Assembly (NCBI GenBank): GCA_944358875.1
Contig: CALVRZ010000002.1
Location: 1 to 58,432 of the forward strand
Direction: 5' to 3'
DNA: 58,432 nucleotides
From: an uncultured Bacilli bacterium
GTDB taxonomy: Bacteria > Bacillota_I > Bacilli_A > RF39 > UBA660
Shown: one piece after another, positions 1 to 6,477 of the stretch
Position numbering within the stretch: position 1 is the stretch's first letter
Layout: each line of letters begins with the position of its first letter
The notes under the pieces: generated by a model
The model's input: only the letters and a program-made list of their open reading frames with translations
What the model was told of the DNA's origin: nothing
Database searches by the model: none
Position numbers and translations under genes: made by a program

Positions 1-66
1 AAAGGTGAAATAAAAAAAAAAAAAAAAAAAATAAAAAAATACCTAAAAGAAAAAAACAATTATATT

Positions 67-600
67 TTGACAAGAGATATTATTAATTTAAAAAAAAAAA
101 AAAAAAATATTCCTAAAATGGTTGATGATGGAGAAATAAAAAAAGTTAACCATGGAATATATATGAGTCCAAATGTTATGGAAGATGAGTATTATATTAT
201 TCAGTTGAGATATCCTGATGCAGTATTTTCATATAATACGGCATTTCATATTATGAATATGACTAATTTAACTCCATCAATTATCGATGTTACTATGCCA
301 AGAAAAAAACAAATAATAGGTAATTATAATATTCATTATGTATCTAAGGAAAAATATGAACTTGGAATCATAACTGTTGAAAGTCCATTTGGTAATCCTA
401 TTAAAATATATAATGCCGAAAGATGTATTTGTGATATGTTAAGAAGTAATGATGAGTTTGATTTAGAATTACAAAATAGGATTTTAAATACTTATTTTAA
501 TAGTAAAGAAAAAAATATTAAACTATTAGAAGAATATGCTAAAAAGTTAAATGTTTATGATAAAGTTAATACGATAATTGAGGTAATGATGAAATGGTAG
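67..600 (+). CDS. abiEi: AbiEi-family antitoxin/transcriptional regulator of a type IV TA (abortive infection) pair. The 5' end is uncertain because the frame stays open to the window edge.
   Basis: It has the wing-like motif GEIKKVNHGIYM and a C-terminal ERCICDML region typical of AbiEi antitoxins. Its stop overlaps the start of the next gene (ATGGTAG). It is paired with an AbiEii-type gene. Confidence 0.65.
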   Translation: MTRDIINLKKKKKNIPKMVDDGEIKKVNHGIYMSPNVMEDEYYIIQLRYPDAVFSYNTAFHIMNMTNLTPSIIDVTMPRKKQIIGNYNIHYVSKEKYELGIITVESPFGNPIKIYNAERCICDMLRSNDEFDLELQNRILNTYFNSKEKNIKLLEEYAKKLNVYDKVNTIIEVMMKW

Positions 601-1445
601 ATTATAGAGATATTGAAACAAAAGCTAAAAAATTATCGTGCGAAAAGAATATTGATTATTATGAATTATTACAAAGATTTATGTTTGAAAGAATTCTGGA
701 AAGAATATCTATCTCTAAATATAATGATAATTTTATCTTAAAAGGTGGTCTTCTTTTATCTGCAATTTTTGGTATTGATAACAGAGCTACAAAAGATATG
801 GATACTACTGTTAAAGGTTTAGACGTTTCAGAAGAAATTATGGTTAATATATTAAATGAAATATTGAGTATTAACTTAAATGATGGTGTTAAATTTGCTT
901 TAATTAATATTACTAATATACGAGAAGGTAATGAATACGGTGGTAACAAATATCATATTGTAGGTAGATTTCAAAACATGAGAGTGAATTTAGAGATAGA
1001 TATTTCTACTGGAGATAAAGTTACACCAAGAGAATTAAAATATAAATATCCATTGATATTTAGTGATAAAGAAATAACTATAAGTAGCTATAATATTGAA
1101 ACTATTTTAGCTGAAAAGATAGAAACTGTTTTAAAAAGAGGTATATATAATAGTAGAATGAAAGATTTTTATGATATCTATGTCTTTATCAATAATTTTA
1201 GTAATGATATAAATTACGATGATCTTTTATCTGCTATGAAAAACACTTTTAAAAAGCGAGATTCATTAGATGTTTTAGAAGATTACAAAAAGATTTTAAA
1301 CGAATTAAAAAATAGCGAAAGATTAAATAGTTTATGGAATAAGTATATAAATAAAAGAAATTATGCTAAAAATATAGATTTTTTTACAATAATTGAATTA
1401 CTAGATGGATTTTTAGATAAACATTCTACTGCTGTTTATAATTAG
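594..1445 (+). CDS. abiEii: AbiEii/AbiGii-family nucleotidyltransferase toxin (DUF1814)
   Basis: FILKGGLLLSAIFGIDNRATKDMD matches the KGG...R.T.D.D nucleotidyltransferase signature of AbiEii. It is translationally coupled to the AbiEi-like gene. Confidence 0.8.
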   Translation: MVDYRDIETKAKKLSCEKNIDYYELLQRFMFERILERISISKYNDNFILKGGLLLSAIFGIDNRATKDMDTTVKGLDVSEEIMVNILNEILSINLNDGVKFALINITNIREGNEYGGNKYHIVGRFQNMRVNLEIDISTGDKVTPRELKYKYPLIFSDKEITISSYNIETILAEKIETVLKRGIYNSRMKDFYDIYVFINNFSNDINYDDLLSAMKNTFKKRDSLDVLEDYKKILNELKNSERLNSLWNKYINKRNYAKNIDFFTIIELLDGFLDKHSTAVYN

Positions 1446-1679
1446 AAATATATATTTTGAGGTAGCAATACTATTTGTAGCGGGGGAAGTACTTTAATCA
1501 AGCAATATTAAAAAAATTTGTTAATATTTATCACAAAATATATTTTAGATGTTCTTCATTTAGAAGAAAATTAAATAAATATATGTAGGAAATGGTTGTA
1601 ATAATGAATATTAATGATTTAGATGTATTAACAAATAGAGAAGAAGAATTTTTAAAAGCATTTATTGCTTTTTTTGTCT

Positions 1680-2117
1680 TTATTTGATACAAGCTACTCT
1701 TTGACGCATACCTCCGGATAAATTTTTAGGGTATTTATAAATAAAATCTCCTAATCCATATGTTTTTAATAAATTAATTACTTTTTGTTTTTTTTCTTCT
1801 GTTAATTTTTTTTCTACTTTTAGACCTATTAGGCAGTTATCTAATATATTTAGCCAATCAAATAAAGAGTCTTGTTGTAGCATATAACCTAGTTTAGAGT
1901 TAAATGGAAATATTATATTTCCACTAGTTTTTTGTTCTATATTACATAAGATTGATAGTAAAGTAGATTTTCCGCAACCTGACGGTCCAACGATGGCTAT
2001 AAATTCTTGTTCTTTTACTTTTAGTGATAAATTTTTAATAGCTTCTATTTCACCATCTTTGGTATAATAGGTTTTTTCTAGGTTTTCTATTATTAATAAA
2101 TTATTCATAATTTTCAA
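1680..2117 (-). pseudogene. ABC transporter ATP-binding protein (nitrate/sulfonate/taurine type), truncated at the C-terminus
   Basis: It has Walker A GPSGCGKST and the signature LSGGMRQRVA. The ORF ends 4 codons after the signature, and Walker B and the H-loop are missing. No permease gene follows. Confidence 0.8.
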
Positions 2118-2661
2118 AATCTTTAGTGTAAATTAAATTTTCAAAATCTACTTTTTTATCTAATTCGCCAGCTGCTATTATGATATCTTGAATATGATTC
2201 CATTCTTCTTCGTTAATTGTTATATTTTTCTTCCACGCTTCGCCATTTTTGTAACGATCAACTATTTTAATAATATCTTCTAATGAAGTATCAGGGAAAA
2301 ATTCTAATAATTCTTTTGCTATAGTTTCACTATCTTGTTCATATACGAATTTTAATGCTTTATTAATAGCGTTTCTAAATCCTTTAATAATGTCTGGATT
2401 ATCTTCTATATAACTTTTTTTAGCGTTATAAGCAGTGTATGGGACACTTCCTCCTAGTTCCCCAACGTATGCAACTACGTGACCAAAGCCTGCTTTTTCT
2501 ACATTTAGAGCATTTGGTTCAAATAGGGTAACAAAGTCTCCAACTCCTCCAATAAAGGCCCCTTCCATTGCGGCAAAGTCAACTGATGTATCGATTGTTA
2601 AATCTTTATTAGGATCTATTCCGTGTTCTCTTAAGGCCCATTCGAATGTCATTTCAGGCAT
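2101..2661 (-). pseudogene. C-terminal fragment of an NMT1/THI5/SsuA-like ABC substrate-binding protein, split by an insertion
   Basis: It starts with MPEMTFEW, which continues the ...VIGGRQG end of the N-terminal fragment at 5829..6284. Confidence 0.8.
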
Positions 2662-2832
2662 TCCACCCCACCGGCATTAAAACTTATGATGTAAAAAATG
2701 CTTATAAAATAAGGAAAGGTAGAACACATTAACATAAGTTTTTGTAAAAATGTGTCTAAAAACTTGACCTAAATCCACTGTATAAAAGTATTTTAGTTTA
2801 TTAAAATACATAAAATGCAGTAGGTGGTTAAA

Positions 2833-2940
2833 TTGAAAATAATAAATGTATTTAACGAAAATGGGCAGACACTACAACAAATAATGGAACAATTTTTAAT
2901 TGACTATTGTTTAGAGGCTGGAACTTTTAAAAATAGTTAA
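2833..2940 (+). CDS. Possible 35-codon ORF (TTG start) upstream of the recombinase, function unknown
   Basis: AGGTGG lies 5 nt upstream of the TTG. The product would be LKIINVFNENGQTLQQIMEQFLIDYCLEAGTFKNS. It is too short to be in the ORF track. Confidence 0.25.
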   Translation: MKIINVFNENGQTLQQIMEQFLIDYCLEAGTFKNS

Positions 2941-2983
2941 TATAATATATTTGTTAATGTGTTTTACCAAGAAGGGAGAGAAT

Positions 2984-4546
2984 ATGAAAGGTAAAACATT
3001 TAATACTGCTCTTTATATTAGACTATCTCGTGAAGATGGAGATAATATGGAAAGCGAAAGTATTACAAATCAAAGAGATTTATTACATCTATTCTTAGAG
3101 AAGACAAAAGAAAAGTTACAATATGTTGATGAATATGTCGATGATGGTTTTACTGGTTCTAATTTTGATAGACCTTCTTGGAAAAGACTAATGGCAGATA
3201 TTGATAGTGGTAAAGTTAATACCATAATTACCAAAGATTTATCTCGTATGGGTAGAGATTATATCTCAATGGGGGAATATATCGAAAGAATATTCCCCGA
3301 ACGAGGTATAAGATATATTGCTTTAAATGATGATATTGATACACTGCACGAAACACCAGGTTTAGAGTTTTTACAATTTAAACTAATGTTTAATGATTAC
3401 TATTTAAAAGATACATCTAAGAAAATTAGAAAAGTTGTAAGAGCCAAAAAGGAGCAAGGACAGTTTTTAGGTTGGAAAGCAGTATATGGTTATAAAAAAG
3501 ACCCTAATGATAAGCATAAAATTATTGTTGATGAGGAAGTTAGATCTATTATTGAAAGAATGTTTAATTTAGTAATCGATGGTAAAAGTCCAAGGCAAAT
3601 TGCTAATATATTCTCTGATGAGCATATTCCTACCCCTAGTGTTTATGCAAATCTTAATAGAGGTGTGAAATCTACGGCTTATGAATTATGGTGTCCTAGG
3701 ACAATAGAAGAAATGCTTACAAATGAAACATACATCGGAAATCTTACTCAAGGTAGAAGAAAAAAGTTAAATTATAAGTCTAAAAAAGAAATTAGAACGC
3801 CTAAAGAAGAATGGATAATTACAGAAAATACCCACGAAGCAATTATTGATAAAAAAGTATTTGATACAGTCGGGGAGTTATTAAAGAAAAACAAAAACAA
3901 ACCTACTGGTAATAATATTCAATTACTTTCTGGCTTTATGGTATGTAAAGAATGTGGACACGCAATAGGTATAAATAAAAGTAGCGATGGGAAAAGATAT
4001 TACTGTTGTTGTACTTATTATATATCTCATTCTAAATATGGTTTATGTACTCCACACAGTTGTAATTATAAAAAATTGGAAAATCTTGTGTTAGAAGAAA
4101 TTAAAAAGATGTGCAAGGAGTATGTAGATAGCAGTTCATTTTCTAATAAGTTAGAAGAAGAAAGAAAGAAAAATGATATTAAAATTAAAAAACAAAAGGA
4201 AATTAATGTATTAGATAAAAGAATTAGAACTAATAACTCATATATAGACAAAATATATGAAGATAAGTTAAGTGGTAATATTGATATGGAAATGTTTAAC
4301 CGTTTAACAATAAAATACAAAGATGAAATAGTTTCTTGGAAAAATCAAAGAGATGAGTTAGAAGAAGAACTTAAAAATATTGATACAGAAGATGGTAATA
4401 AAGAAAAGGAAGAAATATTAAAAAAGATAAACGAATATTTATCTTTTGAAAAACCAAATAGAAATTTATTAGTAAATCTAATTGATAAGATACTTATAAG
4501 TGAAGATAAAATAGTAGAAATTCACTATAAATTCAAGCTATATTAA
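2984..4546 (+). CDS. Large serine recombinase (resolvase domain, recombinase domain, zinc ribbon, coiled coil)
   Basis: ALYIRLSREDGD contains the catalytic Ser. A Cys-rich CKECGH...CCC...C region and a long K/E-rich C-terminal coiled coil follow. AGGGAG RBS precedes the ATG at 2984. Confidence 0.9.
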   Translation: MKGKTFNTALYIRLSREDGDNMESESITNQRDLLHLFLEKTKEKLQYVDEYVDDGFTGSNFDRPSWKRLMADIDSGKVNTIITKDLSRMGRDYISMGEYIERIFPERGIRYIALNDDIDTLHETPGLEFLQFKLMFNDYYLKDTSKKIRKVVRAKKEQGQFLGWKAVYGYKKDPNDKHKIIVDEEVRSIIERMFNLVIDGKSPRQIANIFSDEHIPTPSVYANLNRGVKSTAYELWCPRTIEEMLTNETYIGNLTQGRRKKLNYKSKKEIRTPKEEWIITENTHEAIIDKKVFDTVGELLKKNKNKPTGNNIQLLSGFMVCKECGHAIGINKSSDGKRYYCCCTYYISHSKYGLCTPHSCNYKKLENLVLEEIKKMCKEYVDSSSFSNKLEEERKKNDIKIKKQKEINVLDKRIRTNNSYIDKIYEDKLSGNIDMEMFNRLTIKYKDEIVSWKNQRDELEEELKNIDTEDGNKEKEEILKKINEYLSFEKPNRNLLVNLIDKILISEDKIVEIHYKFKLY

Positions 4547-4606
4547 TGAAAAATATAAGGAGATATGGTATAATAATACATATTACATTAGGAAGAAGGT
4601 GTGGTT

Positions 4607-5797
4607 ATGAAATGTATTTTAATGAATAAAAATACAGAAGTATTAGTTGCAGAATATAATACAGTTTCTAAGTTTTTTGATAGAATTATAGAAGTTAAAA
4701 ATATTGATTATGCTCCTTATATTTTAAAGAGTTTTTATATTAAAGATGATATCAATGATACTCCTTTTAGAACAAATTTATCAGAGTGGTTTAGAGGAAG
4801 AGGTATCCCTAATTGGCGTGATAAATTAGATTTATTATTACATCGCCTAGATATAAGTGCTCCAACTGAATTATTAGATAAAGCTTTCGGTTTATCTTTA
4901 TCGGATCAATATTGGTTAAAACCAATTGATAGTAATTTGAAGTATGATGATATTAACTTTTTTGATAATGATTTTGACTATGCTGAGTTCTTAGAAGCCT
5001 CACTTTCACTTAATAGCAAGATAGTAAAAAAAGAAACTTCTCTTATAACACCTAATAATACTACTGATGGTATGTTAAAAAAAGCATGGATTATTGAAGA
5101 TGGTACAAGATATCTATTAAAAGGCGGTTATAAAAATGAAATATTACAACCTTTTAATGAGGTTTTAGCATCTATGATATGTGATAAATTAGGTTTTAAT
5201 CATGTCCCATATACCTTAGATGTATATAAAGATACCGTAGTATCTAAATGTCCATGTTCTATAAATAAAGATACCGAACTTATTACCGCCTGTCAAATAA
5301 AAAATGATATGAAAAGACATGATAATACAGATGACTATGAAGAGTATATTAAAAAATTAGAGGAAAATGGTATTTCTAATGCTAGAGAAAAAATAGAAAA
5401 TATGTATATCTTAGATTTTCTTATTATGAATGAAGATAGACACTTAAATAATTTTGGTATTATAAGAGATGTTAATACCCTAAAATGGTTAGATGTCGCT
5501 CCTATATTTGATAATGGTATGGCTTTGAATATTCCATATTATGATGAAAATGAAGTAATCATATCAGGAAATGGAAGATTTTTCTACGAGGTAAAACCAT
5601 TTGATGAAATTATTAAAGTAGTAAGAAATATAAAAAGAATAGATGTATCAAAACTATCAGATATACCAGAAGAATTTGATAAACTACTACATAAGTATCA
5701 AAGTATTACCAAAATGTCTGATAAAAGAATATATAGATTATGTGTTCTTTTAAATAGACAAATAAATAAATTAAAGAAAATAATTGAGGAAGCCTGA
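4607..5797 (+). CDS. HipA-like Ser/Thr kinase (HipA_C domain)
   Basis: The catalytic-loop-like motif MNEDRHLNNFGII and the region KKAWIIEDGTRYLLKGG...FNEVLASMICDKLG resemble HipA_C. No HipB-like HTH gene is adjacent. Confidence 0.7.
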   Translation: MKCILMNKNTEVLVAEYNTVSKFFDRIIEVKNIDYAPYILKSFYIKDDINDTPFRTNLSEWFRGRGIPNWRDKLDLLLHRLDISAPTELLDKAFGLSLSDQYWLKPIDSNLKYDDINFFDNDFDYAEFLEASLSLNSKIVKKETSLITPNNTTDGMLKKAWIIEDGTRYLLKGGYKNEILQPFNEVLASMICDKLGFNHVPYTLDVYKDTVVSKCPCSINKDTELITACQIKNDMKRHDNTDDYEEYIKKLEENGISNAREKIENMYILDFLIMNEDRHLNNFGIIRDVNTLKWLDVAPIFDNGMALNIPYYDENEVIISGNGRFFYEVKPFDEIIKVVRNIKRIDVSKLSDIPEEFDKLLHKYQSITKMSDKRIYRLCVLLNRQINKLKKIIEEA

Positions 5798-5828
5798 TTA
5801 GGTTTTCTTTAATATTAAGAAAAAAACA

Positions 5829-6284
5829 TTATAAGTTTTGCATCCGAAGACCTTGTCTTCCACCAATGACATACTTTCCTTTTAAGTCTTCAAGGGTAAA
5901 GTTTTCATATGGTTCTCTCGATACTAAGAATGACCCATCTTTTTGTGTTAAACCAGCGAATGTTTGGACATAATCTTTTTCGCCACCATTATAGACGTAG
6001 ATGGTTGCTTCAGTTCCAGAGAAACCAATGTCAACATCACCTGATAATACGGCTGCCATAACAGCATCGGCACCTGGTGTTAAGACTAATTCTATTTCAA
6101 GGCCTTCATCTTCAAAGTATCCTTCACTAATAGCGGCATATTGTGGGGCATAAAAGATACTATGGGTTACTTCTGCTAAAGTGATTTTTTGTAATTTGGC
6201 ATTAGAGTCATCTTTAAAAATAGCAAAGATAGCTATACCTAAAATGACAACTAAGGTAATAATACCTATGATAGTTTTTTTCAT
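5829..6284 (-). pseudogene. N-terminal fragment (signal/anchor plus domain 1) of the split NMT1/SsuA-like substrate-binding protein
   Basis: It has an N-terminal hydrophobic segment and the motif THSIFYAPQYAAISEGYF. It ends in 6 element-derived codons and a stop right at the insertion junction. Confidence 0.8.
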
Positions 6285-6477
6285 ATTTCCTCCTTTTCAT
6301 ACAATTTATTATATTCGTCGTTTTTAAAAGTGTTAATGGTCATGGGTAGACACTTAGTTTACAATTTATTTTAAATTTAGATTGTGCTTTGTAATTTAGT
6401 TTTGATAAATTGTCAATAATTTATTGTGTTATTTAAAATATTGTTATATAATGATGATAGAAAGGAGAATGGATGAT

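Follow-up and report, generated by a model that had tools for sequence, protein, structure and literature searches.

A probable large serine recombinase mini-element with a HipA-type kinase as its cargo in a split binding-protein gene of uncultured Bacilli

In the genome of an uncultured Bacilli bacterium, the gene for an NMT1/SsuA-type binding protein of an ATP-binding cassette (ABC) transporter lies in two pieces, separated by about 3.2 kb of DNA that encodes a large serine recombinase (LSR) and a HipA-type kinase. What is this insertion, and what is a kinase doing in it? We analysed the locus on contig CALVRZ010000002.1 (58,432 nt; hereafter the window), which is the whole of contig C2 in a 1.31-Mb, 56-contig assembly labelled G000. 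The closest named relatives of G000 are uncultured gut ‘Bacilli’ or ‘Tenericutes’ metagenome-assembled genomes and Candidatus Onthousia. We consider it likely that window positions 2668-5852 form an LSR-type integrative mini-element in which the kinase is passenger cargo. A first-pass annotation, made from the sequence alone, had already proposed a discrete LSR element with attL/attR-like ends in the binding-protein gene, and the recombinase domains, the attachment (att) arms, the crossover core and a natural empty site all bear that proposal out.

Boundaries, empty site and spread of the element

The element has only three genes, all on the forward strand: a 35-codon open reading frame (ORF), the LSR and the kinase (Table 1). 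Its ends are 24-nt imperfect inverted repeats, at 2668-2691 (CCACCGGCATTAAAACTTATGATG) and 5827-5850 (CATTATAAGTTTTGCATCCGAAGA). A junction alignment of 16 related loci, which takes in the sister species G001 and 14 other loci, showed that these arms recur, equally spaced from the crossover; the arms bear the ATAAGTTT motif at a fixed spacing from the core, and their sequence co-varies with recombinase lineage. Judged by this conservation, the inverted-repeat ends are not due to chance. On the strand of the split gene, the attL junction runs from GTCATTGGTGGAAGACAAGG into TCTTCGGATGCAAAACTTATAATG, and the attR junction reads CATCATAAGTTTTAATGCCGGTGG, then GG, then TGGAATGCCTGAAATG. Because GG (CC on the forward strand) are the only bases always common to attL and attR across the lineages, we place the crossover core there. 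The base next to the core is T on the element side and A on the chromosomal side, a mismatch that sets the core at 2 bp and the insertion as conservative.

Two details of the first-pass annotation change accordingly. It had described ACC flanks on both sides of the insert; ACC is indeed repeated in the window, but only CC is common to attL and attR across lineages and at the empty site. Its deletion span, 2668-5849, was 3 nt short and would yield GGRQGGGM, whereas removal of the correct insert, 2668-5852, gives GGRQGGMPEM. Intact relatives read VIGGR[QKTE]GGMPEM over the site, so the restored ORF that had been predicted agrees with them in sequence, but the two halves joined in this way probably stem from two organisms, as described below. 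By Pfam, the two ORFs cover complementary stretches of the 216-position NMT1 profile, positions 5-96 for ORF 5829..6284 and 109-213 for ORF 2101..2661. The former runs six codons into the element, to a stop at 5829.

A natural empty site was recovered by searching with the joined protein. The search returned P0121, an intact 332-aa binding protein whose N-terminal part is 100% identical to that of the window and whose C-terminal part is the version found on another G000 contig, C46, not the window version. The metagenome contig from which P0121 comes, L160, shares 99.8% DNA identity with window 6420..5851 and is 98.1% identical to C46 past the core. Its junction, GGAAGACAAGG joined directly to AGGTATGCC, is the exact attB predicted from attL and the attR of C46. 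The first-pass annotation had suggested looking for an uninterrupted gene in relatives and for copies of the element elsewhere; L160 and P0121 supply the former, and copies were found in other genomes, always at the same site. Many relatives keep the binding-protein gene intact.

The distribution of these copies speaks to mobility. We call the native host of the window’s left flank A and a second organism X. Copies at least 99% identical occupy the same codon in both backgrounds (L025 and L026 in A; L027-L031 in X), although the N-terminal parts of the two binding-protein genes are only 77% identical. In the sister species G001, an element 91-93% identical sits at the same codon. Across one-genome-per-species collections, recombinase and kinase occur together at this codon in ~20 genomes, and their pairing is thus not the unusual one-off it was first taken to be. 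Recombinases at least 56% identical were present in 20 of the 301 sampled genomes of the order, and every fetched relative in this set whose contig reaches the flank (12 of 12) abuts binding-protein codon 143-144. These comparisons indicate that the element is strictly site-specific and, because a near-identical element sits at the same codon in a host whose flank is only 77% identical, that it was recently transferred. Strains of the same organism without the element, together with the near-identical copies in divergent hosts, further suggest that it is mobile now or was until very recently.

Table 1 Features of the locus (window coordinates, except for the attP-like sites, which lie in related loci)
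Feature	Position	Strand	Details
Integrative mini-element (probable)	2668..5852	+	3,185 bp with one core copy; missing from empty-site contig L160
attR	2642..2691	-	B' arm 2642-2665 (codes GGMPEMT...), core CC 2666-2667, P arm 2668-2691; from the 16-locus junction alignment, L160 and C46
attL	5827..5876	-	P' arm 5827-5850, core CC 5851-5852, B arm 5853-5876 (codes ...VIGGRQG); from the 16-locus alignment and L160
Conserved 35-codon ORF	2833..2940	+	TTG start, GGTGG ribosome-binding site; product MKIINVFNENGQTLQQIMEQFLIDYCLEAGTFKNS
Large serine recombinase, 520 aa	2984..4546	+	Pfam Resolvase 1.1e-20, Recombinase 2.5e-23, Zn_ribbon_recom 5.5e-10
Promoter-like site of the kinase cassette	4546..4574	+	ATGAAA, 17 nt, TG-n-TATAAT extended -10; consensus scan
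HipA/CtkA-fold Ser/Thr kinase (predicted), 396 aa, sole cargo	4607..5797	+	ATG start; HipA_C, CtkA, Foldseek and PADLOC matches
NMT1/SsuA-type binding-protein gene, N-terminal part	5853..6284	-	144 codons, native; ORF 5829..6284; Pfam NMT1 7.7e-12
Binding-protein gene, C-terminal part	2101..2665	-	From second organism X, probably mis-joined; ORF 2101..2661
ABC ATPase gene, N-terminal part	1680..2117	-	Pfam ABC_tran positions 2-118 of 137; cut after LSGGMRQRVA by a second, larger recombinase element
attP-like sites in relatives	L161 5930-6020; L162 7555-7650; L163 7615-7710; L164 5660-5760; L165 7597-7690		

The two halves of the split gene in the window probably come from different organisms. 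The first 77 nt of contig C46 equal window 2742..2666, and the two sequences diverge exactly at the core; the C-terminal half on C46 shares 72% protein and 75% DNA identity with the C-terminal part in the window. The 77-nt overlap ending at the core looks like a k=77 assembly-graph branch, and we rejected C46 as a second copy of the element on this ground; recombinase and kinase are each present once in G000. ENA contigs L025 and L026 combine the element with the left flank of the window at 98-99.6% identity (background A), and ENA contig L028 combines the window’s right flank (99.6%) and the element (99-100%) with a different N-terminal part, 77% identical. That divergent N-terminal part of X lies downstream of a rotamase gene in L027 and L029, and the left flank of X was not present in the G000 bin. 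In aggregate, these data suggest that contig C2 was probably mis-joined over the shared 3.2-kb element, from the left flank of A to the right flank of X. Window 1-2665, with its AbiEi/AbiEii genes, ATPase fragment and C-terminal part, would then probably belong to X, and the true right flank of A would be C46 (G000:C46:1-1076); a genuine A/X recombinant is a possible alternative. In practical terms, the initial 2.7 kb of this contig probably derive from an organism other than the one to which the genome is assigned.

Integration module and kinase cassette

The recombinase matches the phrog_95 integrase (4.3e-95), and its closest annotated relative is a TndX, to which it is 34.4% identical over 98% of its length. 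Upstream of it, the 35-codon ORF, listed only as possible in the first-pass annotation, turns out to be a real conserved gene. It is open, with a GGTGG or GGTGA ribosome-binding site, 5' of every related recombinase examined, down to 41% identity, and pairwise differences among ten lineages number 221/79/565 at codon positions 1/2/3, the pattern of a translated gene under purifying selection. Its 35-aa product has no family match in profile libraries and no homology to known directionality factors. Given the precedent of GirX, the 42-aa directionality factor of the gin element (PMC5595907), we regard this peptide as the best candidate for a directionality factor or recombinase regulator.

Relatives of the recombinase occur in other settings. 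Genome G314 encodes one that is 98% identical and heads a much larger element (L161 7790-10736), which lacks the kinase and carries different cargo; the only part of the window homologous to it is 2780-4537, the 35-codon ORF and the recombinase. Among the cargo genes of the G314 element are those for three paralogues of 135-159 aa and for a small serine recombinase or invertase of 196 aa. A second LSR of G000 itself, 41% identical and with a similar small ORF upstream, adjoins cotJB/cotJC-like genes on a 3.3-kb contig (G000:C56 (L002) 925-2687). Kinase-less relatives carry a complete attP-like site after the recombinase stop, ~20 nt from attL and with the same arm geometry (Table 1). The centre of that site is GC, GT or AC, not GG, and the window element has no such site.

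Several lines of evidence identify the cargo gene. Among solved structures, the only sequence match of the kinase is CtkA of Helicobacter pylori (5.3e-06), and the alignment sets NEDRHLNNFG against NFDRHNGNWG and APIFDNG against APIFDCG, covering the DRH..N and FD.G motifs. The kinase also matches eight PADLOC PDC-M03A profiles (best 6.2e-16), and a Foldseek search with its AlphaFold model retrieved HipA, CtkA and HipT, each with probability 1.00. The motif RYLLKGG, the Gly-rich loop (TTDGMLKK), the catalytic loop (NEDRHLNNFG) and PIFDNG, with the Mg-binding FDNG, do not vary among 26 relatives. Model and alignments thus predict a HipA/CtkA fold with intact catalytic motifs.

As the first-pass annotation had observed, this kinase is a single cargo gene with no HipB-like partner. 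Neither the ORF list nor Pfam yielded a HipB (helix-turn-helix, HTH) or HipS antitoxin gene in the element; Pfam detected no N-terminal HTH in the kinase; and clustering of the neighbours in 121 loci (41 from a sample of the family and the 80 closest) gave no conserved partner gene. In 7-8 loci, a 463-aa protein without a Pfam family lies downstream near the kinase.

The kinase family is large (more than 4,951 matches) and patchily distributed, occurring in 64 of the 301 genomes and 45 of the 128 genera in our sample of the order. A recombinase stands beside the kinase in 7 of the 41 family-sample loci and in ~21 of the 80 closest; within the fetched flanks, none lies near it in the other 34 of 41 or in ~57 of the 80. 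Kinases at least 84% identical are mostly recombinase-linked. Unlinked loci adjoin genes for Mrr-type nucleases, Fic, type I restriction–modification (R-M) or SWIM/PRiA4 proteins, none of which recurs. The motif TGnTATAAT precedes the kinase ATG by ~40 nt in 59 of 78 loci, recombinase-linked or not; a promoter and terminator scan of the window did no better than on shuffled sequence, the DNA being AT-rich. Because most relatives are recombinase-free and a 98%-identical recombinase works without the kinase, the kinase appears to be an autonomous single-gene cassette captured as cargo, neither a recombination accessory nor half of an obligate pair.

Two side observations concern the movement of cargo. 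A 4.3-kb faecal virome contig (L175; MT839835.1) bears a 33%-identical kinase homologue by two tyrosine recombinase genes in higher-GC DNA, so the kinase family also rides other kinds of mobile element. In two relatives, an additional 1.65 kb lies between recombinase and kinase (L084 4353-6001; L088 2584-4232), showing that cargo can be added inside the mini-element.

We propose the following mechanism. The 520-aa recombinase would recombine attP, in which imperfect inverted arms of 24 nt each flank a GG core, with an attB on the chromosome formed by the codons for GGR-x-GG-MPEM in the NMT1/SsuA-type ABC binding-protein gene. Insertion would be conservative, with no duplication past the 2-bp core, and would split the gene. 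The inserted DNA would comprise two modules: one for integration, conserved and made up of the 35-codon ORF and the recombinase, and a self-promoted kinase cassette, which may provide a self-contained growth-arresting or phage-defence function, to the advantage of the host or of the stability of the element. Excision may require the recombinase alone, as in the TndX/TnpX systems (TndX is not known to need a directionality factor), or the recombinase together with the 35-aa peptide acting as one.

A growth-arresting or phage-defence enzyme is what we infer to be the most likely nature of the kinase. Its specific role, defence or toxin, we assign only tentatively, and genomic context makes an addiction or defence function possible.

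Some observations weigh against this account. The Pfam HipA_C match (4.3e-07) scores 30.2 bits, just under the cut-off of 30.5, and the AlphaFold model is of moderate confidence (predicted local distance difference test 68; predicted template modelling score 0.59). The defence reading draws on a candidate profile, PDC-M03A, and on Mrr, Fic and type I R-M neighbours in other loci. Among the three ORFs of the element, Pfam and other profile libraries identified no relaxase, transfer, replication or packaging gene, and hence no transfer function. If the 35-aa peptide were a co-expressed directionality factor, stable integration would need added regulation. No excised circle or attP junction was seen. 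Neither the predicted attP pattern nor the attL pattern had a match in JGI metagenome contigs or IMG/VR; a control with the element end alone was unmatched there too, these collections do not contain the element, and that result is therefore uninformative. Contigs of ~3.2 kb that might have been excised circles were rejected: ENA contig L032 (3,189 nt) equals window 2666..5854 and ends at both cores with flank bases rather than attP, and the 3,185-nt contig of P0046 has an unrelated context.

An operon with several insertion sites and the alternatives weighed

The element is not the only insertion in this operon. In every genome inspected, the downstream ATPase gene is cut after LSGGMRQRV. The C-terminal part of the ATPase gene lies 10-14 kb away in G001, G199 and G028, past an element with its own LSR (L075, L076 and L077), which in G001 and G199 carries copA, cadA and cadC; in G000 it is found at C35:83-421, and the permease gene is on C35 as well. 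Within the binding-protein gene, a split near codon 70 holds a 1.56-kb insert in G010 (L019 1790-3348; a 390-aa recombinase and a 94-aa ORF) and a 3.6-kb insert in G314 (L161 2076-5701), and a split near codons 190-198 occurs in G011 (L018 3050-6832), G012 and G267 (L173). These binding-protein sites are used by different recombinase lineages, and some genomes have two of them filled at once. The operon thus has three LSR insertion sites besides the element’s own; LSRs occur in 197 of the 301 genomes of the sample. At the start of the window, positions 1-1445 encode an AbiEi/AbiEii pair (AbiEii 1.6e-36) just past the ATPase fragment; this pair probably marks one edge of the element interrupting the ATPase gene of organism X.

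Four recombinase lineages break this one operon at as many conserved codon positions, and do so in numerous genera, which counts in favour of a domesticated gene-intervening switch, in which regulated excision rebuilds the gene and turns the transporter on, as with skin, SP-beta, gin and XisF/fdxN. Excision would exactly restore the frame, gin sets a precedent for a small-peptide directionality factor, and the best NCBIfam match of the recombinase is XisF, though far under its cut-off. We nonetheless find such a switch improbable. The split gene encodes part of a transporter rather than a developmental product, and many relatives keep it intact; in this organism an element of the 10-kb class also divides the ATPase gene of the operon, so that loss of the mini-element would not by itself bring transport back. 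The near-identical copies found in divergent hosts fit a spreading parasite better than a switch fixed in the host, and no regulated excision was observed.

Still less probable is a toxin–antitoxin-like pair, in which the whole recombinase or just its DNA-binding part would neutralise the kinase or repress it, along the lines suggested for hipMP, and the pair would stabilise itself. The idea has a precedent in Gerdes et al. 2021, who described Hip kinases beside resolvase-like putative antitoxins (HipP, gamma-delta-resolvase-like) proposed for HipM kinases (PMC8262856). Here the recombinase and kinase genes lie 60 nt apart on the same strand, and most kinases at or above 84% identity are linked to a recombinase. 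Against the pair, the loci counted above as free of a recombinase (34 of 41 in the sample of the family and ~57 of the closest 80) lack any other conserved partner too. The recombinase, for its part, exists at 98% identity without the kinase, and the kinase has its own promoter-like site. Moreover, the two genes stand in the opposite order to hipMP, and the recombinase is a full-length integrase whose insertion products have been demonstrated.

The first-pass annotation had also suggested that the kinase might regulate excision. It could do so either as a directionality factor or by acting on the recombinase, for example through phosphorylation. The kinase is the only sizeable second protein of the element, and the LSR directionality factors known so far are structurally diverse (PMC12286644). 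This role is disfavoured, however, by recombinases 56-98% identical that use the same site without a kinase and by the solitary state of most kinase homologues, and the 35-aa ORF, which accompanies every recombinase lineage, is the better candidate; we rate regulation by the kinase as very unlikely, on a par with the toxin–antitoxin-like pair. Least credible of all is an immobile relic of a larger element (a prophage or an integrative and conjugative element) left as a scar in a dead operon, for although transfer, replication and packaging genes are missing and relatives of the recombinase head elements of >6 kb, all three ORFs are undamaged and conserved, both ends are complete, an empty site is known from a conspecific, and copies at least 99% identical occur in hosts whose flanks are 23% different.

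We therefore favour the integrative mini-element with the kinase as passenger. With att arms, a peptide gene, a recombinase and one cargo gene, it is near the smallest self-contained LSR element imaginable. All four sites, attP, attB, attL and attR, can be read from natural occupied and empty sites, which makes the element a well-defined candidate for a new integrase/att pair and permits testing whether the 35-aa peptide sets directionality. It also shows a solo kinase of the HipA family that spreads among uncultured gut Bacilli as a one-gene cassette.

A broader picture can be drawn, which in its entirety we regard as speculative and rather unlikely. The 35-codon ORF and recombinase would form a portable module that picks up single self-promoted genes and, although it has no transfer genes, moves from genus to genus among gut Bacilli with reduced genomes. 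Together with three other lineages, it would make the operon a four-site landing pad (binding-protein codons ~70, 144 and ~195; ATPase codon 143). No directionality factor smaller than the 35-aa peptide would be known, and the hipMP ‘antitoxins’ would need re-reading as element recombinases.

Comparison with known systems

Our literature search for ‘large serine recombinase’ together with HipA found no paper, and that for PDC-M03 found only an unrelated paper mentioning the term. PDC-M03 is a candidate defence system in PADLOC, not a validated one; the kinase matches its gene A profile, and no second gene recurs beside the kinase in the 41 + 80 loci.

With HipA (hipBA), HipT (hipBST), CtkA and YjjJ/HipH, the kinase has in common the predicted fold, the DRH..N and FD.G motifs and the Gly-rich loop. 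No antitoxin gene adjoins it, as is also the case for the solo kinases CtkA and YjjJ; unlike the kinases of hipBA and hipBST, it has neither a HipB nor a HipS partner. The hipMP arrangement likewise places a Hip-type kinase beside a gene of the serine-recombinase family. In contrast to hipMP, the recombinase of the element is a full-length integrase that lies upstream and has left insertion products, and its pairing with the kinase is facultative. A recombinase beside a Hip kinase may thus be the integrase of an element and not always an antitoxin, which suggests that some resolvase-like ‘antitoxins’ may merely be recombinases of small mobile elements.

The skin, SP-beta and gin elements (SpoIVCA, SprA/SprB and GirC/GirX) are likewise serine-recombinase elements within coding regions, whose precise excision would rebuild the gene, and the 42-aa GirX of gin is the tiny-peptide counterpart of the 35-aa ORF (PMC5595907). 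Those elements have 31 genes or are prophage-sized, target sporulation genes and are excised in the mother cell, whereas the window element has three genes, a transporter target and clear horizontal spread.

The closest likeness is to the TndX/TnpX group (Tn5397 and Tn4451/Tn4453). Shared features are the three-domain recombinase architecture, conservative insertion at a 2-bp core with imperfect inverted arms, a low-GC Gram-positive gut host, and a small, non-phage element. The core reported for TnpX and TndX is GA, against GG here, and at 6.3 kb Tn4451 is about twice the size of the window element. Unlike Tn4451 and Tn5397, the element has no mobilisation or conjugation gene (three ORFs, with no relaxase or transfer domain); unlike the TnpX/TndX elements, it targets one codon of one gene and carries a conserved 35-aa ORF 5' of its recombinase. 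The element is, in sum, a very compact instance of an already known kind of LSR element.

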